Positions 3,058-19,842 of a stretch of 21,891 nucleotides of DNA are shown in pieces. The first letter of the stretch is position 1, and the number at the start of each line of letters is the position of its first letter. Location of the stretch: the NCBI GenBank assembly GCA_019057635.1, contig DXJL01000137.1:1-21891 (forward strand). Direction: 5' to 3'. The notes under the pieces were generated by a model, which saw only the letters and a program-made list of their open reading frames with translations, ran no database searches and was not told the DNA's origin. The position numbers and the translations under genes are program-made. This stretch comes from Candidatus Heimdallarchaeota archaeon. GTDB taxonomy: Archaea > Asgardarchaeota > Heimdallarchaeia > Hodarchaeales > Hodarchaeaceae.

Positions 3058-3459
3058 TTAAAAATAACTTCTGCTTTTGTTATCAGCTTCAATATACATG
3101 ATTTTTGATCGTTTATCGGTTGGATCACATTTCAAGACCTTTAACAAGAAAAATTTAGCCAGTTCCCAATTTTTTCTTTGGTAATAGAATTTACCTAGTT
3201 CTCTCCACGATTTAACAGATTTAACTCCGCTCTTACTATCAAGAAGATCAGAATTTTCTGTATTCGCTTGATCAATTGAAGAGGCACAATAGGGGCATCG
3301 TTCAAGCCCAACCATTTTCAAATCCTGTAAACACGAGGCACATATTAAGCGGTGGCAAGTCTTACACTCATAATTCTCATTTTGCTTCTTATTGTACTCG
3401 GTGCACAGGCAACAATATACAGTACGGTATTCTTCTCGTGGGGGGAGACGTTCTAACAT
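3058..3459 (-). CDS. RING-like (C4C4) zinc finger plus C-terminal TPR-like protein
   Basis: Cys spacing C-x2-C-x12-C-x2-C-x4-C-x2-C-x11-CPYC. C-terminal WRELGKFYYQRKNWELAKFFLLKVLKCDP fits the TPR consensus. Confidence 0.75.
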   Translation of the reverse strand: MLERLPPREEYRTVYCCLCTEYNKKQNENYECKTCHRLICASCLQDLKMVGLERCPYCASSIDQANTENSDLLDSKSGVKSVKSWRELGKFYYQRKNWELAKFFLLKVLKCDPTDKRSKIMYIEADNKSRSYF

Positions 3460-6021: not shown

Positions 6022-6465
6022 TTATACTAATTGCAATTCTTCAAACCAATTTCCTATTGACTCAAACCAGTCCGCTAAAAACGTCTTTAATTGATTAAAT
6101 GTTGGTTTAACAAGTGAATAATGAGTAAAATTACCCCTCTTCCATCCTTGAATTAATTTTAAATTCTCTAATTTTCTTAAGTCCCTTGAAATTACAGGTT
6201 GCGACTTTTGTAACATAGCTTCAAGTTCACAAGAACAACGATCTTTCTCTCGTAAAGCATTTATAATCAACAATCTGTCAGTATTTCCAAGAACTTCAAA
6301 AATACTATTTATGAAGAGAAACGGTTCTTCCGCTTTCAGTGCCATAGATAATGCTCCCAGATTATGATAATAGTCTTCAGCGTTATCTATGCCCTCACAT
6401 TTTCCTAATATCTGTATGATACGAGTTTTAAATTGTTCTTCGCCGATTTTGGTCACATTAATCAC
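6022..6465 (-). CDS. arsR: ArsR/SmtB family metalloregulator
   Basis: FEVLGNTDRLLII...DRCSCELEAMLQKSQPVISRDLRKL...GNFTHYSL, with a CxC site in helix 3. Divergent from acr3. Confidence 0.9.
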   Translation of the reverse strand: MINVTKIGEEQFKTRIIQILGKCEGIDNAEDYYHNLGALSMALKAEEPFLFINSIFEVLGNTDRLLIINALREKDRCSCELEAMLQKSQPVISRDLRKLENLKLIQGWKRGNFTHYSLVKPTFNQLKTFLADWFESIGNWFEELQLV

Positions 6466-6494
6466 TAATCTTATGGGTTAAACTATTTTAAGTA

Positions 6495-6524
6495 GTTATA
6501 TCAAAATTCTTAAATATATATAAC
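6495..6524. promoter_or_regulatory. Putative ArsR operator in the divergent arsR/acr3 promoter
   Basis: Imperfect inverted repeat GTTATAT(6495-6501)...ATATAAC(6518-6524) overlapping TATA-like sequence between the divergent genes. Confidence 0.4.
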
Positions 6525-6588
6525 AAAAAGTGAATACGTTTTATAAAATTATCTATTTTTAAAATCAACAATAATCTGGTATTAAACA

Positions 6589-7650
6589 ATGGAAACTCAT
6601 GACTCAATGGCCATTAAACATGACAAAGAGGAATCAGCACTAAGCTTATTCGAAAAATATCTGGTGGTGTGGATTCCATTATGTATGCTTGCAGGAATAC
6701 TCTTATCCCAATATCTACCATGGATCAGTGAAACAATTGATAATATCCAAATAAGAGGAATTTCCATTCCGATAGGTATTTGCTTGTTTCTTATGATGTA
6801 CCCCGCAGTACTCAATCTCAAGAGTTCTGAATTAAGAAAACTCGGTAGGAATCCAAAACCAATAATCCTCACTCTCTTCTCAAATTGGATAGTCGCACCA
6901 ATTGTTGGTCTTGTATTAGCGAATTTCTTTCTAGCAGGAAACGACCAACTAATAACTGCAATTATCTTACTTAGTGCCAGTCCTTGTACGGCAATGGTAT
7001 TAGTATGGGGATTAATGGCAGAAGGAAATCAAGAACAAAATGTTGTCAATACAAGTTTGAATACAATTACTATAATGATTCTTTACGCTCCACTTGTTAC
7101 AATTCTCACTGGAATTCAAAATATCCCTATTGACAGAGTTAGTCTTGCATTATCGGTTATTGTGTTCATTGGATTACCAATCTTTCTCGGATTATTAAGT
7201 AGGAATTATTTAATTTCAAAAAAAGGAGATCTTTGGTTCAATGAGACTTACCGACCGATAATTGGTAAAGTAGCGATTGTTGCGTTACTGATTACTCTGA
7301 TTTTATTATTTGCTTTAAATGGTAACACCCTTATTGAAAATCCAGAACTACTCGTCTTAGTTTCGATTCCATTATTGCTAGGTTTTGTGATAGTTGTTGG
7401 GTTTAATGTGTTTATTACCCGTATATTCAGGTTGCAATACAAAGAAGCTATTATTACAGTGATTATCGGATCTTCCAGCCATTTTGAAATAGCCATTGCA
7501 ACAGCTATTGCCGTGTACGGACTTGGATCAGTAGCTGCTCTAGGTACAACAATGGGATTATTCTGGGAAATTCCCATCATGCTCAGTATTGTGTATATGG
7601 GAAAATATCTTGGAAAAAGAGCTTTTTGGAATACCGAAGTGAAGACATAA
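6589..7650 (+). CDS. acr3: ACR3 family arsenite efflux transporter
   Basis: LSLFEKYLVVWI, MMYP, NWIVAP, SPCTAMVLVW and GSSSHFEIAIATAI are Acr3 signature motifs. Confidence 0.95.
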   Translation: METHDSMAIKHDKEESALSLFEKYLVVWIPLCMLAGILLSQYLPWISETIDNIQIRGISIPIGICLFLMMYPAVLNLKSSELRKLGRNPKPIILTLFSNWIVAPIVGLVLANFFLAGNDQLITAIILLSASPCTAMVLVWGLMAEGNQEQNVVNTSLNTITIMILYAPLVTILTGIQNIPIDRVSLALSVIVFIGLPIFLGLLSRNYLISKKGDLWFNETYRPIIGKVAIVALLITLILLFALNGNTLIENPELLVLVSIPLLLGFVIVVGFNVFITRIFRLQYKEAIITVIIGSSSHFEIAIATAIAVYGLGSVAALGTTMGLFWEIPIMLSIVYMGKYLGKRAFWNTEVKT

Positions 7651-7763
7651 ACTCCCTTCACTGTTCTTTGAGAATGTGGTTAATATTCAAACAGTTTTCT
7701 TTATCAAAAATCGAAAATGACCCCATCCCTTTTGTGAAAGGACATTCTCGAGATTATAGGGGG

Positions 7764-8229
7764 TCAATACTGTTGTTGGATAGATTGACAGATATGGACA
7801 TTTATAGACAAATAGGACAAGATGACATTGAGGAAAGAAGAGAAATAGAAAGCGGGATATCTTAGAAGGAGGAGTAGAGATAAAATACAGGATTAATAGA
7901 GTGTTCAACCGATCTCATAGGATTATACCTAAAATGACGCGCTATATAACTTCTTGATATTAGAATAACGGGAAACAAGCAAATTTGTTTTAGATTACAG
8001 GGCTTAGTAGGTTTATAAGAAGAAAAGCTACTAATCAATCAGGAAAGTCATGTGTATTTCCTGTCGCCGAGAGTTCTGCGGAGACCTTAAACGCCTGTGG
8101 AGAGGCGGTAAGACCTGCATTAATGCCGGCTCGCGTCGCTGAATCAGGAAGAACAGCGCCAAAGAGAGTTAAGGATAATTTTTCCCAATTATTCCTAGCG
8201 GTCCTATTTGGGTAAGTCTTTCAGAACGG
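7764..8229 (+). mobile_element. Non-autonomous (MITE-like) IS607-family element, ~466 bp, no tnpA/tnpB
   Basis: GG(T) at both junctions (7762-7764, 8228-8230), and removal restores the host frame. Left end has five GACA-core direct repeats (7787, 7797, 7807, 7816, 7824). CAAATAGGAC (7809-7818) recurs inverted as GTCCTATTTG (8201-8210). The right end ...GGGTAAGTCTTTCAGAACGG resembles IS607 right ends as I recall them. Confidence 0.8.
7781..7827 (+). repeat. Left-end direct repeat array (putative serine-recombinase TnpA binding sites)
   Basis: TAGATTGACA GATATGGACA TTTATAGACA AATAGGACA AGATGACA; GACA cores spaced 10, 10, 9 and 8 bp. Confidence 0.7.
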
Positions 8230-8249
8230 TATCGAACACCTCATTATAG
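8045..8249 (+). ncRNA. Putative TnpB omegaRNA (scaffold to 8229 plus flanking guide); 5' boundary approximate
   Basis: Contains AACGCCTGTGGAG (8090-8102), GTAAGACC (8108-8115) and GAATCAGGAA (8141-8150). 8063 onward translates as VAESSAETLNACGE, like the TnpB tail that overlaps the omegaRNA. Several hairpins. TTTATA box at 8012-8017. Confidence 0.65.
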
Positions 8250-8865
8250 ACTAAACTTTCAATGTGAAAATCTTTGAAGAAATCGAATACATCTTCCATA
8301 TGGGAGAAAAAACGAGGAATTCCATCCTCCACCCCACTTTTTATAACAATTGTCTGCTCATCAACAATATGACTGCTTTTTTCTCTAAATTGAGACCCCC
8401 TATCTTTTGTTAAAAGAGTTCCATAGAAAACTCCTCCAGGCTTTAGAATACGATACACTTCGGAAATGGTTTTCACAATATCCTTTCTAAATGCATGATA
8501 TATAACATCAAAACTTACTACTAAATCAAAAGTATTATCTGGATGAGCTATTTGTGTCATTCGTCCCTGGTTAACATTTGCTGATAAACCAGCTTTTTCT
8601 AACCACATTTTGGTTTCTTGAACTGCTTCTTCTGAGATGTCGCTCGCAAATACTTGGTATCCCTGAGCCGTAAAAAAAAACCGTGTGTCTCCCAATTCCA
8701 CAACCAAGATCATAAACTTTAATTTCAGGATTTTGCTCTAGTGAAAAGACTAATCTCATCACAGGACCATCGGGTATTTCCCAGCCACTTTTATCCATGA
8801 GTTCTAACCAGTTCCATCCCTGTTGGACTGATTCTTTTTTCAAGCTAAAACCTCATATAGAATTA

Positions 8866-9801
8866 TCAAGATGCGCTCCCCTGTGAACTCTCCTTTCCGC
8901 TCATCCTTGCTCTATTGAATTGTATGGTAAAGGTAGAAATAAGCAGAATTATTAGTCCTATCCATTCATTCATTAAAGGCATCTCCTCGAGAAATATCAT
9001 CGAAAGAAATACAATTTGGGGAAACATAGTTCCATTAATAATGGAAATGTCCATAGCCCTTATCTTACGCATAGCATTATTCCATAAAGTGAATGCTAAT
9101 GCTGTGTTTACGACTCCCAGCCAAAGGATCATGATGAGGGAGGAGAAAGAAATAGGGGGTATTGACTCAAAGCTGAAAGCAGATAATAATAGAAACATGG
9201 AGCCAAAACTCATGCTAATAGCCGTAATTAACAAAGGATGAACAAAATTTCCACGATTTATACCACGACCTATGATTGATGAGAGAGCATTTACTACAAC
9301 TAAACCTATCCCTACAAATAATCCTGAGACAGAGAAAAGTTCAAATTTGAACGGATAGAAGTAACAAAGAATTCCTGCTAGTGCAATAAGAAAGAAGATA
9401 ATCTCAAACCTAGTAGGTGATTCCTGGAGGAAGAAGAGGGAGAATAAAATGACAAAAAATGGAGTAAGATTCAAGAGGAAGGACACCGTAATGGCAGGTA
9501 AGAGGGATAAGGCCAAAAATTGTCCTCCTTGAGTAAAAGTAATAAACACTAATCCATAAACAAATAACATCATCCACAGTCTTCTATCCTGATGCTTCAA
9601 AGTGTTACGATGAGAAGAATTACTGAAAACCAGTGTAAGAAGCAGAAGGGATCCAATCAGGTAACGGAGTCCTGCAAAAAATAATGGAGGCAATTCATCT
9701 AATCCAAATTTAATAATAACCCAAGAACTACTCCATAAAACAGTTACGAATAGTGCCTGTAATACTGCGTATACATATTCACGAGAAAACTGATTTTTCA
9801 T
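8866..9801 (-). CDS. DMT superfamily (EamA) transporter
   Basis: LWSSSWVIIKFGL...PPLFFAGLRY; two EamA halves, ~10 TM segments; LGVVNTALAFTLWN. Confidence 0.92.
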   Translation of the reverse strand: MKNQFSREYVYAVLQALFVTVLWSSSWVIIKFGLDELPPLFFAGLRYLIGSLLLLTLVFSNSSHRNTLKHQDRRLWMMLFVYGLVFITFTQGGQFLALSLLPAITVSFLLNLTPFFVILFSLFFLQESPTRFEIIFFLIALAGILCYFYPFKFELFSVSGLFVGIGLVVVNALSSIIGRGINRGNFVHPLLITAISMSFGSMFLLLSAFSFESIPPISFSSLIMILWLGVVNTALAFTLWNNAMRKIRAMDISIINGTMFPQIVFLSMIFLEEMPLMNEWIGLIILLISTFTIQFNRARMSGKESSQGSAS

Positions 9802-12541: not shown

Positions 12542-14221
12542 TCAATTTGGTTTAAAATCTCGACGTAAGGGAGTAAACATCGGTACATATAATAGAGGAA
12601 CCCAATCTTTGGGATTAGGCCGCCAGCTACCGATAACGGCTTTCACTTCTTCTCCTTCAGTGAAGTTACAAATCTTAGGATTGTAATTAAAACCTCTTAC
12701 CATCTTTTGATCAAACATTGCCCAGTAGGGTTTGCCAGGATGACCCGCAGCCTTTTTCGTTGAGGGACCGAAAAAGTTTACACTCTTGATCCGAGCTCTT
12801 TTAGGGATTTGCACTGTTTCTAATTGCTCTCCGCAAATTCTCTTCGCATCGGAAGCATCCTTCTTTATTCCTCGTAAACACTTACCTTTCAGTGCTTCAA
12901 ATTTCACTGGAGGGGAAAAATCTGGAAAATTGTCTTTGCTCCAACTATCCCCGAAATAGACGGCTCCACATTTTGGGCATCCTTCAACTTCATAAAATTC
13001 TTCTGAGATTGGTTCATAATCAATTAAAGCAATATGTTTGGCTGCATTATCTGGATTATCTCGGAATCGGATATAATCATCAACCGATATTTTTTGCTTA
13101 TACTCAATCTGTTCCTGAACAGTAGGAACACCATTAGTTGCAGCTTTAGACCCATTTTGTTTGACATTTATACTAATGACATCTGAACCAGCACCTGAAC
13201 CATAAAGAACAGTCATAATTTCATCGCCATCCTTAGCTCTTTCAATCGCATCACACAATGCGGTAGGAACAGTTGCAGAATATCCATTGGCGATTTGGGG
13301 CGCCAAGTTCGAAACATTTACCTGAGGTTTGATACCAAGCATTTTACCATCAGCATCAAATTCTTTCTCTGCAAGTTTGACCCCATAGAAATTTGAAATA
13401 TCAAGCAAGGCTTCATTCGGGAAAGAACCATTCGGACTATGGATAACCCAAGTTTTATTGGGAAGACACTTGGGATCAATCGAATAACGTTCTACATGTT
13501 TCTTAACAGCAGATAAAATCATCCCACGAAAGGCTAAACTAGTACCCTGACCTTCATGTTCAGGAAAACTTTGCCCTTCTTTTCTAACGAAGTCTGAAAA
13601 ATCATAATTAACGGAGGTACGCCCGTTAAGTTCAGCAATGCCATTATCCTTCCCTAGGATAAGTGTTGTTGAATAGAAAGAGGCGGAAAATTCAAGATCA
13701 TCACCAGGTGCTCCTTGAGAAGCATCAGTGGCAGTAATTGCGACATATCGACAACGATCCGCGTCTATCAGTGCAGCACCAATCTCTAAGAATTCTCCGA
13801 AAGGTTTACAGGCAAATTCTCCACGTACTCCAAATCGTAAATTCGTCAATCCCGCTTTTCCAGCAATTGCTGTACTAGATTTTACAGCATAGGGATAGGA
13901 TTCGGATACTACGAATAATGCATCAATTTGAGTGGGATCAATGCCTGCTCTTTTAACAGCATAGTTTAAGCTTTGAATACCAGCGGTTAAAGCATCTTCA
14001 TTTGGTCCAGGTACAATTTTCTCTATTAATAAGAGACGTTGATTATATACCCACCGAACGGATCTTAATGCTTTACCTCTGAAACGGTTAACTGTTTCTT
14101 TCATCATTCTAAATGCAGTTTTATAATGCAATTGTGACATAGAATGATAATGATCAACTAACTCCTCTATTTCCAGCCGGTTGACAGGAATGAATGAAGC
14201 GATTGATTTAATCTCAGCCAT
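12542..14221 (-). CDS. Archaeal-type HMG-CoA synthase fused to a C-terminal DUF35-like Zn-ribbon/OB domain
   Basis: SESYPYAVKS, EFACK (catalytic Cys), D.SQGAPGDDLEFSAS, DFVRKEGQSFPEH, IHSPNGSFP (His), ANGYSA and YGSGAGSD match archaeal HMGS. An extra ~150 aa tail contains GCPKCGAVYF...KC...RICGEQLETVQIP. Confidence 0.85.
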   Translation of the reverse strand: MAEIKSIASFIPVNRLEIEELVDHYHSMSQLHYKTAFRMMKETVNRFRGKALRSVRWVYNQRLLLIEKIVPGPNEDALTAGIQSLNYAVKRAGIDPTQIDALFVVSESYPYAVKSSTAIAGKAGLTNLRFGVRGEFACKPFGEFLEIGAALIDADRCRYVAITATDASQGAPGDDLEFSASFYSTTLILGKDNGIAELNGRTSVNYDFSDFVRKEGQSFPEHEGQGTSLAFRGMILSAVKKHVERYSIDPKCLPNKTWVIHSPNGSFPNEALLDISNFYGVKLAEKEFDADGKMLGIKPQVNVSNLAPQIANGYSATVPTALCDAIERAKDGDEIMTVLYGSGAGSDVISINVKQNGSKAATNGVPTVQEQIEYKQKISVDDYIRFRDNPDNAAKHIALIDYEPISEEFYEVEGCPKCGAVYFGDSWSKDNFPDFSPPVKFEALKGKCLRGIKKDASDAKRICGEQLETVQIPKRARIKSVNFFGPSTKKAAGHPGKPYWAMFDQKMVRGFNYNPKICNFTEGEEVKAVIGSWRPNPKDWVPLLYVPMFTPLRRDFKPN

Positions 14222-15713: not shown

Positions 15714-16220
15714 AGTGTTGTTTTTATCAAGACTAATTAATTTTACTCAGAATCCACAACAAATATTTTCCAACAAAGAATTTACTTAATTTGTGAATAG
15801 CTAAATTTCTCTCAGATTCCGTAATCTCTCTCAGTCTCACGGTTATAAGAAATTACATCCCAATAAACACAGACAGTATTAGAATATTTGAGCTGGGAAA
15901 AATACGGTAATAAAAGACCCCTCAAGATCAAACTAGTAACTAGTTTCGATTTTAAGGAGAGATCTAATATATTTCTTCAAGAACAATCTCTGATATCCTG
16001 AATTATAATGGGTAAGGAAAAAGGATTATTTTGTCGGATTTACTTAAAATCTCATTTGTCTCAGTCTTCAACGTCATTTTGTTAATGAAATAAAATAAAA
16101 TCTAGGAATTCAGCATAAGATTAAACTTTGGTCATAAAAACAATTCAAAAACGTCAGTTCATAACTATTTCAGCTACAAACGAATTTTGAAACCCTAATA
16201 CTTCTCTTAGGATTTCTCTC

Positions 16221-16433
16221 TTAGGAAAAGAGTGACTCCCCGATAGTAGATATTTTTTTTTTGGAAATATAACCTAAGAAGGACTTACTTTTAGAATGGT
16301 CTTTAGAAATCTTAAATAATTTTGATGATTTTGACCTTGTGCTTTCTATTAATATTGACACTAAATCCTGTACTAAACTCTCATCTTGGTACAGCTGGTT
16401 GAATCTGTACGTTAACTGAAATAAATCCCACAT
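16221..16433 (-). CDS. Hypothetical 70-aa protein
   Basis: ATG-started ORF 56 bp downstream of the small peptide gene, on the same strand. No recognisable motif. Confidence 0.3.
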   Translation of the reverse strand: MWDLFQLTYRFNQLYQDESLVQDLVSILIESTRSKSSKLFKISKDHSKSKSFLGYISKKKISTIGESLFS

Positions 16434-16489
16434 TCAGCTAAACGATTAAATTTACTATGATCCTTGTACTAGATATTATGTAATATTAT

Positions 16490-16642
16490 TCAATCAATTC
16501 CGCTACCAAGTGGACCATTCATACCCGCGCCAACAGTGGAAGCAACCATGAACAATAATATCATGAATATCAAAGGAAGCATTTTTAGTAGTACTAGTTC
16601 AGCATTGAATTTCGATTCTCTTATTCTTTCTTTCTTTTGCAT
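16490..16642 (-). CDS. Small 50-aa secreted or membrane peptide (signal-peptide-like precursor)
   Basis: Below the ORF-track cutoff: MQKKERIRESKFNAELVLLKMLPLIFMILLFMVASTVGAGMNGPLGSGID*. GGTGA Shine-Dalgarno just upstream (GGTGAAAATAA-ATG). Basic n-region, hydrophobic h-region, V-G-A c-region. Confidence 0.7.
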   Translation of the reverse strand: MQKKERIRESKFNAELVLLKMLPLIFMILLFMVASTVGAGMNGPLGSGID

Positions 16643-16758
16643 TTATTTTCACCATTTTCTTTAAAGTCGTCATTTTCAGTTTTTAGACTAGAGAAAATCT
16701 CCGTATCTTTTTACTGAAATTACTGATAACTTTACTAGATATCCTTATAAACTATACG

Positions 16759-18234
16759 ATGACCCTCGTATATCACTTGGGACGAAATAGGATGCAACCT
16801 CAACACCAAAGTCCAGAAATAGTCGATAGGATCCGACAAAATCATGAACAGAAAGTTGATACCTTTGTTCTTGATTTTCTGGATATTTGGTATAAGATTC
16901 ACAATCTAACTGAAAATAGCAATCTTGAGAATGCACTTAAGATATGCCAATCATTACTACCTTCCCATATCCTCCCATTTTTTGAAAAATACAAAGATGA
17001 GGGGAATCTACAAAAGCACAAGGGATGGATCGACTCGTATGCATCTGTCTATCTGAAATGGGGTGAACGAGGAGGATTTCTTTTTCCGTTAACTCTAGTC
17101 ATATACGAAATTGCGTATAATGATAAGGGAATACTATTCGACCTACTAAAGCAACTAAGGATGGGTATTAATAGAGGTAGCAAGGTCGAACTTTACGAAA
17201 TAATATTTCCCATTTTAACTAATTTTACCGTCCCTCTTGATGAATTAGATTTAGGTATAATGAAAGCATATCAAACTTTGCAACCTCTAAAATCTATCTT
17301 ATTCAAAAACCCAGAGAATAAATCGTTTGCTGAAATCCTTGATGTTTCAACCCGAACGATAATACGTAGATTAAAAGTTCTCAATCTGCTCCAAATTGTA
17401 CGTCCTGTTCAATTTATTGACATGGGGAAATTAGGATATGAATCATTCCTTTACATTCATCAAAATCCGTTTCCAAAAGAATTTCAGAAAAATTTGCTAT
17501 TTTCGTGCAATTTAACCGTAGGAAACTTCAGCATTGTGCAACTACCATCATCTCAGCTTGCAGCTCAGATTAAACTTCAAGATAAACTTGATTTGATTAT
17601 GGTTCAACCGATGGTAAAGCGTACAACATCCTGGAATCTCAATAGTCTCTCCAGTGGAGAAACGACGTGGAAGAATCCACCTACATTCTTCTTTTCAAAT
17701 CCCGAAACAAGTGTAACTACTCCAACTGCTGATGTAAATTTAAATCTAAGACCAACCTTCGACTCCTTCAGAAAATTAACGCGAGCAGATTTTAATCTAT
17801 TAGATTTCATCGCAAGAGAAGGCGGATTTAAAAATCTCAATGATTTAAGTAAAGCAATTCAAGTAAATAGGATGGAAGTCTCGAACCGATTAAAAGAGTA
17901 CACCGATGAAAATCTAATTTTCAAAGCTCATCAATTTTTCAACATCGGATTGGATCTGTCGATTTTCTTCTTTATTTCAGATGTTGAAGATAAAATCCCG
18001 TGGATTTCACACCTTCTTACTTTTCCCAAAGTCGATGTCTTCTATCAGAAAGAAGAGAACCCTCATTATTATTTCGGTTATCTTAAACTTCCCAATACGT
18101 GGATCAAACCATTTGCACGTAAGATAGATCTTATTCGCAATGAGTACAATGTTAAAGTCTATTATAAAATTGCCAGCGCCATTGATCACTTCAAATGGGG
18201 AATTTCATTGGCAAATACCTACTCACATCGTTAA
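16759..18234 (+). CDS. Transcriptional regulator with two tandem Lrp/AsnC-like wHTH modules and an N-terminal extension
   Basis: Module 1: LDELDLGIM...NKSFAEILDVSTRTIIRRLKVL...IDMGKLGY. Module 2: LTRADFNLLDFI...LNDLSKAIQVNRMEVSNRLKEY...FNIGLD. The start may be ATG 16792. Confidence 0.75.
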   Translation: MTLVYHLGRNRMQPQHQSPEIVDRIRQNHEQKVDTFVLDFLDIWYKIHNLTENSNLENALKICQSLLPSHILPFFEKYKDEGNLQKHKGWIDSYASVYLKWGERGGFLFPLTLVIYEIAYNDKGILFDLLKQLRMGINRGSKVELYEIIFPILTNFTVPLDELDLGIMKAYQTLQPLKSILFKNPENKSFAEILDVSTRTIIRRLKVLNLLQIVRPVQFIDMGKLGYESFLYIHQNPFPKEFQKNLLFSCNLTVGNFSIVQLPSSQLAAQIKLQDKLDLIMVQPMVKRTTSWNLNSLSSGETTWKNPPTFFFSNPETSVTTPTADVNLNLRPTFDSFRKLTRADFNLLDFIAREGGFKNLNDLSKAIQVNRMEVSNRLKEYTDENLIFKAHQFFNIGLDLSIFFFISDVEDKIPWISHLLTFPKVDVFYQKEENPHYYFGYLKLPNTWIKPFARKIDLIRNEYNVKVYYKIASAIDHFKWGISLANTYSHR

Positions 18235-18483
18235 TTTTTACATACTAAACTTGAAGAGTAGAACAAAGTTCAGTATCCATTTTTATAACCAGATTACTCA
18301 CCTTCACCTTCTTTAAGATTCCATACGACCATATCAATTTTCTCTAAAAATCGTCCTGAATTATTGAAGCAAACAACAATTTATAAGGAACATAATTCTC
18401 CTTTCACTAAGTGTCCTGCCTACTAATAAGTAAAGATTTTTTGTTGGTAAAAGCTTAATTCCAATAATTTGAAGGATGTAAAT

Positions 18484-19101
18484 ATGCAAGAAAATACAAC
18501 TAATTTACGCATTTACGGCCCACAGATGCCTGCGGCTATTGAACGATTGCATAATCTAGAAGAGAAAGTAGTTGCTGAATTACCCATCGAGCGTGGTGAG
18601 ATCAATATTGGTAAGTATGATTATATTTACCACTGGGAAAAAGCACCCACTCCTGAGCCTTTATTAACTCTTATTGAATATATTGATGACATATTTACTG
18701 GTTTACCTACTCGCTATTCCATTACTACAGAGGGATATCATTCTCGCCGATTAACAGCAGAACTTGACCGTCGGGGTTCACATACAACTTTCAGCTTCGT
18801 CCGGATTCACGGACCAAGTATATCGAAAGCTCTTCGGGCTATTGAAAAAGTTGTAGAAGATGTCGAGACTACAAGTACAATACAATCACTAAAATCGTCT
18901 GTTCTTGTAGGTGAGCAGGATTATGCCTTTGAATGGGATCATTATCCTACAGTGGATGAGATTCATAATTTACTTGCCTCAATCGATAAGCTAGTTGAAC
19001 CTACAGGCGCTTTGTACAAAACGTCTACCTTAAAAAACGTCTATCGGACTGAAAAAGTGATTGACGATCATACTTCTGATAATTTAATGGCCTTCCTATA
19101 A
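18484..19101 (+). CDS. Hypothetical protein with an internally duplicated ~85-100 aa domain
   Basis: LRIYGP...IGKYDYIYHWEKAPT...IDDIF...RYSITT versus VRIHGP...VGEQDYAFEWDHYPT...IDKLV...LYKTST. ATG 18484 preferred over TTG 18469. Confidence 0.8.
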   Translation: MQENTTNLRIYGPQMPAAIERLHNLEEKVVAELPIERGEINIGKYDYIYHWEKAPTPEPLLTLIEYIDDIFTGLPTRYSITTEGYHSRRLTAELDRRGSHTTFSFVRIHGPSISKALRAIEKVVEDVETTSTIQSLKSSVLVGEQDYAFEWDHYPTVDEIHNLLASIDKLVEPTGALYKTSTLKNVYRTEKVIDDHTSDNLMAFL

Positions 19102-19230: not shown

Positions 19231-19842
19231 GTGAATATTGGCCAAATTATTCTGGGTGCCTTGGAAAGCGCGCTTTTAACCTTGGTAGATTATCTTTCTC
19301 TTCACGACTAAATTTGTTAGACAACTATTTGAAAAATGGTTCTGGACAGGATGAGTCACACATCCACTATCTGGCAGGTTATCTGCTCATATTTATTAGA
19401 AAAGAATTTAATGCTGATGAAATTGATAGCTGGCTCACAGAAACTCGGTTTTTTGTGAAATCTATCTTTCCTCTTGTTATCACTGGTGTGGTAATTGCTG
19501 GCTTGATCAAATATTTTGTCCCCCAGATCTTATTGCTGATATTGTTGGTCGAAATACTGTAGTGGCTAACCTCACTGGAGTCTTATTTGGAGTGTTTATG
19601 TATTTTCCCACATTAATGGAAGGACCAATAGCGAAAATCTTTTTGGAACTTGGAATGGCCCGCGGTCCTCTTCTAGCATATCTGTTAGCTGATCCTGAAT
19701 TATCAATTCAAAGTATTCTTGTCACTCGTAAATATCTTGGAGATAAACGAAACATTTTTTTGTGTTATTAGTTACACTCTTTATTACCATGGCTGGATTG
19801 CTATTTGGGCTATTTCTAGGTCATCCAATTGAACTCTGGTAA
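19231..19842 (+). pseudogene. DUF318/ArsP-like permease pseudogene
   Basis: GTG 19231 gives MNIGQIILGALESALLTLVDYLSLH then a stop, with an apparent large internal deletion. Downstream fragments WLTETRFFVKSIFP, FMYFPTLMEGPIA...GMARGPLLAYLLADPELS and TMAGLLFG are linked by frameshifts at C5 (~19520) and T7 (~19755) runs. Confidence 0.8.

Follow-up and report, generated by a model that had tools for sequence, protein, structure and literature searches.

The window, that is, the whole stretch of 21,891 nucleotides analysed here (contig DXJL01000137.1 of Candidatus Heimdallarchaeota archaeon, an archaeon of the Asgard order Hodarchaeales), contains a two-gene cassette in which a 50-codon mini-gene lies head-to-head with the gene of a double Lrp/AsnC-type regulator. 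Our preferred reading, to which we give a probability of roughly 0.4, is that the mini-gene encodes an exported pro-peptide whose released C-terminal tail would be the ligand of the neighbouring regulator. This reading best fits the pairing of the two genes, the design of the mini-protein, the predicted fit of its tail to the regulator and the pattern that links position 104 of the regulator to the C terminus of the tail. A real gene, its conserved pairing, the fold of the regulator, a fast-evolving tail and a conserved intergenic motif are established here. The initial annotation of this DNA had put forward a candidate peptide-signalling module, and it is as a candidate that the module is supported, the binding of the tail resting on structure prediction. 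Every computational check suggested there turned out in its favour, and the conditions named as refuting it did not arise.

The mini-gene occupies 16490–16642 on the minus strand (50 codons and a stop, with the ATG start of the open reading frame (ORF) list) and encodes a putative pre-peptide composed of an export-type leader and a short tail; the position and amino acid sequence first given for it are exact. A Shine-Dalgarno-like GGTGA on the minus strand (16649–16653 in plus-strand numbering) lies 6 nt before its ATG, in agreement with the good ribosome-binding site noted at the outset. The regulator ORF runs from 16759 to 18234 on the plus strand, leaving a head-to-head gap of 116 bp (16643–16758). 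That gap and a length of 491 amino acids, both given in the initial annotation, stand for the ORF as listed, but the true start is more likely Met12 (16792) than the listed ATG at 16759, which would widen the gap to 149 bp. We prefer Met12 because relatives and the family profile align from this residue, because residues 1–12 have a predicted local distance difference test score (pLDDT) below 50 and are disordered in the model, and because a TATA-like box assigned to the regulator gene, TTATAAA (16745–16751, plus strand), ends 7 nt before the listed ATG, too close to it. The box is putative, and equivalent TTTATAA or TTTAAAT boxes occupy the same relative place in other loci.

Judged by the divergence of its orthologues, the 50-codon ORF is a genuine gene under purifying selection. 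The ratio of nonsynonymous to synonymous differences (pN/pS) lies between 0.09 and 0.40 in all 15 pairs of six orthologues, whose differences number 124, 56 and 224 at codon positions 1, 2 and 3; the initial worry that the ORF might lack conservation did not apply. An SD-like tetramer is found 4–18 nt upstream of 28 of the 44 family mini-genes, compared with 11% of 20,000 ATGs drawn at random from the genome. Homologues in other records, several of them gene-called, are annotated ‘hypothetical protein’, and the mini-protein matches no Pfam or NCBIfam family. The exact 50-residue sequence is present in the ESM Atlas, where a search for look-alikes gave no usable match. Metatranscriptome contigs from one study cover 16373–16523 and 16543–16693, and those from a second study cover 16338–16492, with further ones over parts of the regulator (depths 2–8, unstranded). 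This cover is compatible with transcription but weak; in these runs uncovered parts are uninformative, and the small shares (0.05–0.08) point to no habitat.

The mini-gene is found beside the regulator throughout the family. With the 50-residue product as query, tblastn places a divergent homologue just upstream of a regulator homologue in most of the fetched loci. An iterated hidden Markov model (HMM) of the mini-gene took the matches among the small ORFs of these loci from 36 to 42, and five more were found by eye beside distant paralogues, including the second copy in the window genome. Among 53 regulators that are unique, full-length and preceded by at least 350 bp of DNA, 43 have an HMM-detected mini-gene head-to-head within 400 bp and one more (locus L085) has its mini-gene downstream, a count made with an HMM built from many of the same sequences, so that independent sets weigh more. 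In a later independent set, all seven regulators have an adjacent mini-gene, six of them head-to-head and one (locus L085) downstream; among metagenome loci the mini-gene is adjacent in six of seven, the exception being L091. The proposal that homologues of the regulator would have micro-ORFs next to them is thus borne out, and the adjacency is of the kind seen between pro-peptide and receptor genes in RRNPP(A) systems. Pairing persists among paralogues whose regulators are only 21–25% identical, and from these comparisons the pair is retained through dozens of duplications. Run against a six-frame translation of the whole genome, the HMM finds only the window copy at E < 0.01; it is specific, yet not fully sensitive, missing the copy on contig C60.

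An AlphaFold2 model of the regulator, calculated from an alignment of 45 relatives, has a pLDDT of 89.6 and a predicted template-modelling score of 0.88. In this model, residues ∼160–490 are two Lrp/AsnC modules in one chain. Module 1 (17236–17748, plus strand) comprises a winged helix-turn-helix (HTH) at residues ∼162–220 followed by a RAM-like β-α domain, as seen from the secondary structure of the model and from Foldseek; module 2 (17776–18222, plus strand), assigned from the model and Foldseek, repeats this order with a winged HTH at ∼342–393. The fold therefore shows the Lrp/AsnC arrangement of a winged HTH and then a RAM domain (β-α-β-β-α-β), and Foldseek gives a probability of 1.00 to many single Lrp/AsnC regulators (2w25, 7fby, 2efn, 2cfx and others), each over ∼140–170 residues. 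All Pfam and NCBIfam matches lie below threshold, with weak HTH_11 and AhbA matches at 188–234 and weak MarR_2, HTH_24 and Lrs14 matches at 338–390, and the window protein stays below the curated thresholds for the HTH_AsnC-type and AsnC_trans_reg families; precomputed annotation places PF13412 on two of 51 relatives, one of which also has PF13404. The double Lrp/AsnC regulator with two HTH units that was first proposed is thus confirmed by structure and not by Pfam thresholds. No tetratricopeptide repeat (TPR) match to the regulator was found in Pfam or NCBIfam. The N-terminal domain (residues ∼13–158; 16795–17232, plus strand; model pLDDT 87.6) is helical with one hairpin and forms part of the predicted pocket described below. 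Folded alone and compared with 48,161 chains, it gave a best Z of 4.3; since no match reached a Z of 5, we assign it no fold, and from the model it appears to be a new, family-specific domain of no recognisable fold.

The best Foldseek match is the fused double-Lrp enzyme NirDL (4ch7, E 1.7e-8; 4czc, E 4.7e-8), aligned with 4ch7 over 357 columns at 12% identity and a TM-score of 0.37 normalised to the query. Together with the weak AhbA match (E 0.0098), this would allow the large protein to be a siroheme decarboxylase of the NirDL/AhbAB kind and the mini-gene an unrelated neighbour. However, the matches listed include no other fused double-Lrp chain, so that NirDL wins on architecture; AhbA scores 15.7 bits, far below its cut-off of 140, and the window offers no haem-pathway context. 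An expansion to as many as 12 paralogues per genome within one genus and the conserved pairing with mini-genes do not suit an enzyme; nor does the conserved DNA element between the genes, and by eye both HTH units keep the usual Lrp-type pattern in the recognition helix. On the strength of the AhbA score, of the many paralogues and of the partner gene and DNA element, we reject siroheme decarboxylase as the identity of the regulator, an assignment that we find hardly credible.

The mini-protein has three parts. Residues 1–20 (16583–16642, minus strand) form a basic n-region of net charge +3 that is strongly conserved in the alignment. Residues 21–39 (16526–16582, minus strand) comprise a hydrophobic core of 14 residues and a polar stretch of small residues ending in V-G-A(-G), which resembles a signal peptidase I site. 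Residues 40–50, GMNGPLGSGID (16493–16525, minus strand), form a variable Gly/Pro tail, which is the part predicted by co-folding to be the ligand of the regulator. Across 38 aligned mini-proteins, the n-region is ∼20 residues long with a net charge of +2 to +8, the strict hydrophobic core is mostly 13–14 residues (mean 11.8, range 6–14), and a small-x-small site is kept, with A/G/S/T at −1 in 36 and G/A/T/S at −3 in 37. By our own heuristic, not a trained predictor, this is the tripartite layout of Sec/signal peptidase I substrates, in line with the signal-peptide-like region reported for this ORF at first sight. The tails of the same 38 proteins are 9–14 residues long, Pro and Gly account for 173 of their 418 residues, and Asp is the last residue in 19. 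Two subfamilies can be told apart: the tails of subfamily 1, to which the window copy belongs, are Gly-rich and mostly end in a hydrophobic residue and Asp, and those of subfamily 2 begin with Asp-Pro followed by three to six prolines.

The distribution of charge, with a basic N-terminal flank and an acidic tail, predicts an orientation with the N terminus inside and the C terminus outside the cell. When the six orthologues were pooled, a small sample, pN/pS was 0.12 in the n-region (codons 1–17), 0.12 in the hydrophobic part and 0.79 in the tail, with 0.21 for the neighbouring regulator. Secreted signalling pro-peptides show this combination of a stable leader and a rapidly evolving C-terminal piece, and an unconstrained extracellular stub would look the same. 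The genome encodes an archaeal type I signal peptidase (70.8 bits, above cut-off) and two OppA-type binding proteins unlinked to the cassette, which are permissive facts only.

Co-folding of the regulator (alignment of 45 rows) with the mini-protein (38 rows) gave interaction scores (ipSAE) of 0.79, 0.57 and 0.67, with a median of 0.67, whereas the best of three controls reached 0.01. The mark on this score is reached by 58 of 80 solved complexes and by 2 of 110 mismatched pairs, a calibration that holds only roughly for the alignments of our own used here. The runs share at least 65% of their contacts, and the partner has a pLDDT of at least 57. On the mini-protein, the confident interface consists of residues 40–50 only, exactly the tail, so that the co-folding of GMNGPLGSGID with the regulator, suggested as a check in the initial annotation, came out in favour of a predicted contact. 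On the regulator, the interface is formed by residues 85–108 and 150–155 of the N-terminal domain, by residues 205–217 at the far end of the third helix of the first HTH and the strand after it, and by residues 353–358, 391–403, 441 and 472–480 of the second module. The pocket is lined by conserved aromatic residues (W90, Y94, W101, F107, F150, F357, F394, F403 and W480), several of which switch between the two subfamilies together with the type of tail. Proline-rich peptides are usually bound by aromatic cradles. The model supports binding of the tail to the regulator without demonstrating it.

The last residue of the tail varies together with position 104 of the regulator. Arg or Lys occupies this position in 18 of 44 pairs, and the partner tail ends in Asp or Glu in all 18; among the 26 pairs lacking a basic residue at 104, the tail end is acidic in three. 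In the predicted complex, the acidic C terminus of the tail is probably read by Arg104. On the regulator tree, the two traits (a basic residue at 104 and an acidic tail end) change four and five times, respectively, and a scan of eight metagenome loci found no new change at position 104. Tail sequence is variable, and its variation follows the branching of the regulators, as the initial annotation had envisaged in proposing tails that co-vary with the regulator. We count this covariation, drawn from aligned sequences, as suggestive support for binding.

The shared intergenic region contains an operator-like bipartite element, TACGGAGATTTTCTCTAGT, found by matrix match at 16687–16705 on the minus strand. 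In subfamily 1 the element approximates TCCGGA, seven bases and TCTAGA, usually just upstream of the TATA-like box of the regulator, and its regular expression is matched in 18 of 27 intergenic regions of this subfamily compared with an expectation of 2.2% per 130 bp of genome. A matrix made from 16 sites at other loci scores the window copy at 18.7, fourth of 21 matches at or above a cut-off of 12 in the 3.19-Mb genome. Subfamily 2 has a different shared intergenic element. The spacing suits a dimer-like pair of HTH units, and from these sequences we infer that the regulator binds the element. Further high-scoring copies lie in intergenic DNA at C158:5493, C48:1928, C10:33115 and C66:1009; one of these precedes an ABC-transporter-like gene pair and another an ORF of 3119 amino acids, and they could be further targets of the regulator. 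The genome-wide matches were inspected at five places, and we claim no regulon.

A head-to-head layout with a conserved intergenic element is the usual arrangement for Lrp/AsnC regulators, and the mini-protein might be no more than the regulated product, a small secreted or single-pass membrane protein that has its own function at the cell surface and whose predicted contact with the regulator is a false positive. By the positive-inside rule, the tail would lie outside the cell and the regulator inside; the leader is constrained (0.12) and the tail nearly free (0.79), as for an extracellular stub; the mini-gene of subfamily 2 heads an operon of further conserved genes; and the tests of covariation given below are not significant. 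Several observations speak against such a product. The co-fold picks the tail specifically, at 0.67 against 0.01 for the controls, and places it in a pocket that is conserved and aromatic. Position 104 tracks the last tail residue (18/18 against 3/26), and the tails keep their length of 9–14 residues, their richness in Gly and Pro and, in 19 of 38, their terminal Asp. We regard a mere regulated product as unlikely, and prefer the exported pro-peptide.

Several points weigh against that preference. The score of the complex is a measure of model confidence. Three independent contrasts are available on the tree, of which two to three go the same way and none the opposite way (median p 0.25), and with only three independent pairs the sign test for position 104 and the tail cannot reach significance. 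Mutual information between tail and pocket is 0.338 compared with 0.320 for other columns (one-sided p 0.051; leader columns show no enrichment, with p 0.25 and 0.52), and the variability of pocket columns between groups has a p of 0.063. The regular expression and matrix of the intergenic motif were derived post hoc from the same family. The RNA support is thin, consisting of four short, unstranded contigs for which DNA carry-over is possible. Nine of the 53 regulators lack a neighbouring mini-gene, as does one metagenome locus; most of the nine sit inside tandem arrays (L037, L038, L039, L040 and L029), and L033 and L042 are also among them. Least well accommodated by the preferred reading are three further facts: the leader is more tightly constrained than the regulator (0.12 against 0.21) and has an n-region of ∼20 residues, Pro stands at +1 of the putative cleavage site in two family members, and the cassette lacks a linked exporter, protease or importer of its own. 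Pro at +1 blocks bacterial signal peptidase I. Tight constraint and a long n-region would not be usual in a plain Sec signal peptide, and they hint at a separate function of the leader.

These last facts count in favour of binding that involves no trip outside, in which the regulator would bind the unexported precursor, or a membrane-anchored tail, inside the cell. The system may then be a read-out of export or insertion capacity, a product feedback or a membrane-held anti-regulator. The predicted contact of tail and pocket is retained in this scheme, the long and highly conserved leader hints at a role beyond export, a linked exporter or importer is not required, and in the two members with Pro at +1 cleavage is disfavoured anyway. 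Nevertheless, the charges predict a membrane-inserted form with the N terminus in and the tail out, and a small-x-small site kept in 36–37 of 38 mini-proteins is hard to explain without cleavage. Moreover, upstream of 10 regulators lacking a head-to-head mini-gene we found no convincing tiny Pro/Gly-rich ORF; the search for such ORFs of 8–34 codons returned four frames in two loci, none with an SD or a likeness to the family. Binding inside the cell is in our judgement quite unlikely.

A different role for the mini-gene is suggested by subfamily 2, where the tails contain three to six prolines and are followed after 11–54 bp by a conserved gene of ∼106 codons. In a translation-sensing leader, the Pro/Gly-rich end would stall ribosomes and so tune the genes downstream, in the manner of MgtL/MgtP. 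The window tail contains one proline, and although a 70-codon ORF follows the mini-gene (16221–16433), nothing corresponds to it in the relative with an 81% identical regulator; behind the mini-genes of subfamily 1 in general lie 300–570 bp without a conserved ORF. The feature that defines such leaders, a Pro-run ORF upstream of the gene it controls, is therefore absent here and partly present in subfamily 2. A stalling peptide also has no need of 39 conserved initial residues (0.12) or of a match to a pocket in the regulator. This scheme fits the Pro-rich subfamily better than the window locus, and we consider it very unlikely.

On the preferred reading, the exported pro-peptide and the regulator would constitute a two-gene cassette of peptide and intracellular receptor that works in the manner of RRNPP systems with different parts. 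The two fused Lrp/AsnC modules may act as a built-in pseudo-dimer beneath the family-specific N-terminal domain, and the regulator would bind the shared bipartite element to control both the mini-gene and itself. The basic-hydrophobic leader would carry the 50-residue pre-peptide to and across the membrane with its N terminus in and C terminus out, type I signal peptidase would cut after the small-x-small site, and the released tail of 10–11 residues (GMNGPLGSGID or a trimmed form) would accumulate outside. Export, cleavage and uptake are all needed in this scheme because the tail should be outside and the regulator inside; these steps, like DNA binding and the direction of regulation, are inferred. 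After uptake, the tail would lodge in the aromatic pocket, where the N-terminal domain meets the two Lrp modules, and so alter the hold of the regulator on DNA. Paralogous cassettes with different tails in one genome would then represent separate channels.

The family is narrowly distributed. Near-identical loci occur in ‘Candidatus Heimdallarchaeota archaeon B3_Heim’ (95%) and ‘Candidatus Hodarchaeota archaeon YT1_021’ (81%), and the regulator family was found in every one of 21 further genomes from this genus. A sister family yielded one weak regulator match (E 8.5e-6) in one of two genomes, and 17 genomes from three further families of the class gave none. When 151 genomes of the phylum were searched with the profile, full-length regulators appeared only within the genus (7/7, including the window genome), with partial matches to the second Lrp module in four other genomes. 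From 5.8 billion proteins we recovered 51 relatives of the regulator; where a name is given, it is hypothetical or, from JGI, ‘DNA-binding Lrp family transcriptional regulator’. The family was found only in metagenome-assembled genomes of Hodarchaeales type. A profile search of 1.84 billion representatives returned 374 proteins at E ≤0.001, 113 at ≤1e-10 and 49 at ≤1e-30. In viral contigs, the one pattern used found no relative of the regulator, and hence no sign of a virus-borne version.

The number of regulator matches per genome is uneven, from 1 to 12, and the copies are often in arrays; one genome has at least six cassettes, each with a different tail. Arrays of three to five regulator paralogues with a single mini-gene per array are found at L037 (G020:C234), L038 (G001:C14) and L039 (G005:C14). 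Array members that lack a mini-gene mostly keep Arg at position 104, and might listen to peptides made elsewhere. In the downstream arrangement at L085 (G001:C1:457244-461629), the mini-gene lies at 3163–3306 of the locus, 268 bp beyond the regulator and on the same strand. The window genome has two regulator copies, that of the window and one on contig C60 that is 24% identical. This second cassette (C60, ∼6374–9483; loci L002 and L071) includes a divergent mini-gene with a Pro/Gly tail, followed on the same strand by genes for a 106-residue protein (7393–7716) and a ∼290-residue protein with a HELRTA motif (6374–7234).

Similar genes follow the mini-gene in subfamily 2, where it heads a tight operon (L055, L052, L050, L048, L054 and L053) with, in order, the ∼106-residue protein after 11–54 bp, a longin-like protein of ∼145 residues and the ∼290-residue HELRTA protein. 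The longin-like protein has a weak match to Fuz_longin_1 (E 0.0026), and no protein of the operon reaches a curated threshold. The HELRTA motif is reminiscent of a histidine-kinase H-box. Another gene pair, c1-c2, recurs after the mini-gene or the regulator, often in subfamily 1 (L010, L012–L015, L019–L021, L023, L037 and L038). One of its products has ∼90–105 residues; the other, of ∼140–160 residues, looks like a winged helix and contains a very conserved LLLLSFKD...REGIVY stretch. The pair is absent from the window locus and present on another contig of the same genome (C141:7009-7852), and because it lies elsewhere in this genome we do not consider it a required part of the cassette.

At the window locus itself, nothing conserved follows the mini-gene. 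The 70-codon ORF behind it belongs to no family (the only match, of 14 bits, is at chance level) and is left out of the cassette for this reason and because it is not conserved in the close relative; the next gene beyond it encodes a branched-chain aminotransferase. Just downstream of the regulator is an ORF of 210 amino acids (18469–19101, plus strand) with no Pfam or NCBIfam match, followed by a short ORF (19314–19562, plus strand) that weakly matches the middle of the ArsP_1 permease family (165–203 of 294) and may be a fragment or a gene whose start lies elsewhere. On the other side, 12542–14221 (minus strand) encodes a 559-residue homologue of HMG-CoA synthase, all of whose scores fall below the equivalog cut-offs; the family match spans only residues ∼33–399 and leaves ∼160 extra residues at the C terminus. 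An Rfam scan of the whole window at gathering thresholds gave no matches, and a sigma-70 promoter and terminator scan of 16100–16900, made with a tool that lacks archaeal promoters, gave nothing above shuffled sequences that bears on the cassette.

The closest parallels to the cassette are the bacterial RRNPP(A) systems, such as Rap-Phr, PlcR-PapR, NprR-NprX and AimR-AimP, in which a gene for a pro-peptide of ∼40–60 amino acids lies beside that of a cytosolic HTH receptor. The pro-peptides Phr, PapR and AimP are ∼40–60 amino acids long and have a Sec leader, with the active peptide at the C terminus. The Hodarchaeales cassettes share with these systems a conserved leader, a variable (in RRNPP(A), active) C-terminal part, many paralogous pairs with different peptides per genome and a peptide predicted to bind inside the receptor, and with Rgg-SHP they share the divergent layout. 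In contrast, the Hodarchaeales receptor has no TPR and is a fused double Lrp/AsnC protein with a new N-terminal domain, the system is archaeal, the n-region is strongly conserved as well as long, and export, processing and uptake are putative here. Without the TPR receptor that defines RRNPP(A), the cassette is not a member of this group; by analogy, it is a possible functional counterpart. One account treats the RRNPPA receptors as a family of Gram-positive bacteria and their viruses; there they are cytosolic and have a communication propeptide as their partner, and the SEC translocon is given as the ancestral route of export (PMC12700828).

As for the regulator, Lrp/AsnC proteins often control a divergently transcribed neighbour. 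The Hodarchaeales protein has their winged HTH and RAM-type domain, here twice per chain, with a divergent neighbour and a conserved intergenic element. It differs from them in the fusion of two modules, in an extra domain of ∼150 residues and in family scores below threshold; moreover, its predicted ligand is a peptide of 11 residues that would sit where the N-terminal domain, the two HTH units and the second RAM-like domain meet, rather than an amino acid at the RAM-RAM interface. From its model, the regulator belongs by fold to the Lrp/AsnC class, and both its architecture and the kind of ligand predicted for it are new. The PA2577/PA2576 pair is an example of the divergent Lrp/AsnC layout (PMC8707732). 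The initial annotation knew of no described archaeal system with this architecture, and we likewise found no description of the cassette in archaea in the literature searched, the coverage of which stops short of subscription journals and supplements. According to the discussion of a 2025 study of Haloferax, no archaeal protein that responds to quorum signals was known until then; the archaeal signals named in the study are small molecules (PMC12240190).

Cell-to-cell signalling in archaea is barely known, and here a candidate signal and a candidate receptor are defined by sequence, as far as a predicted pocket and a covarying pair of residues. This makes the question testable even though these archaea are hard to grow. 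Were the predicted binding false, there would still be a regulator of new architecture, greatly expanded within one genus and accompanied by a conserved mini-protein. Were it true, the range of ligands of Lrp/AsnC proteins would extend from amino acids to peptides. We tentatively suggest that Hodarchaeales run a peptide pheromone system, with secreted Gly/Pro peptides of 9–14 residues, each recognised by its own cytosolic double-Lrp receptor, and with up to six or more orthogonal channels per genome, a proposal that we hold as possible at rather less than even odds. Such a system would be the first peptide-based form of cell-cell signalling, and the first defined pair of signal and receptor, in Archaea. 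It would have been invented independently of bacterial RRNPP with a receptor of another fold, so that peptide-receptor circuits would have arisen at least twice on unrelated folds. Hodarchaeales are among the closest known archaeal relatives of eukaryotes, and through the cassette the social behaviour of the archaea nearest to them would become accessible to study.

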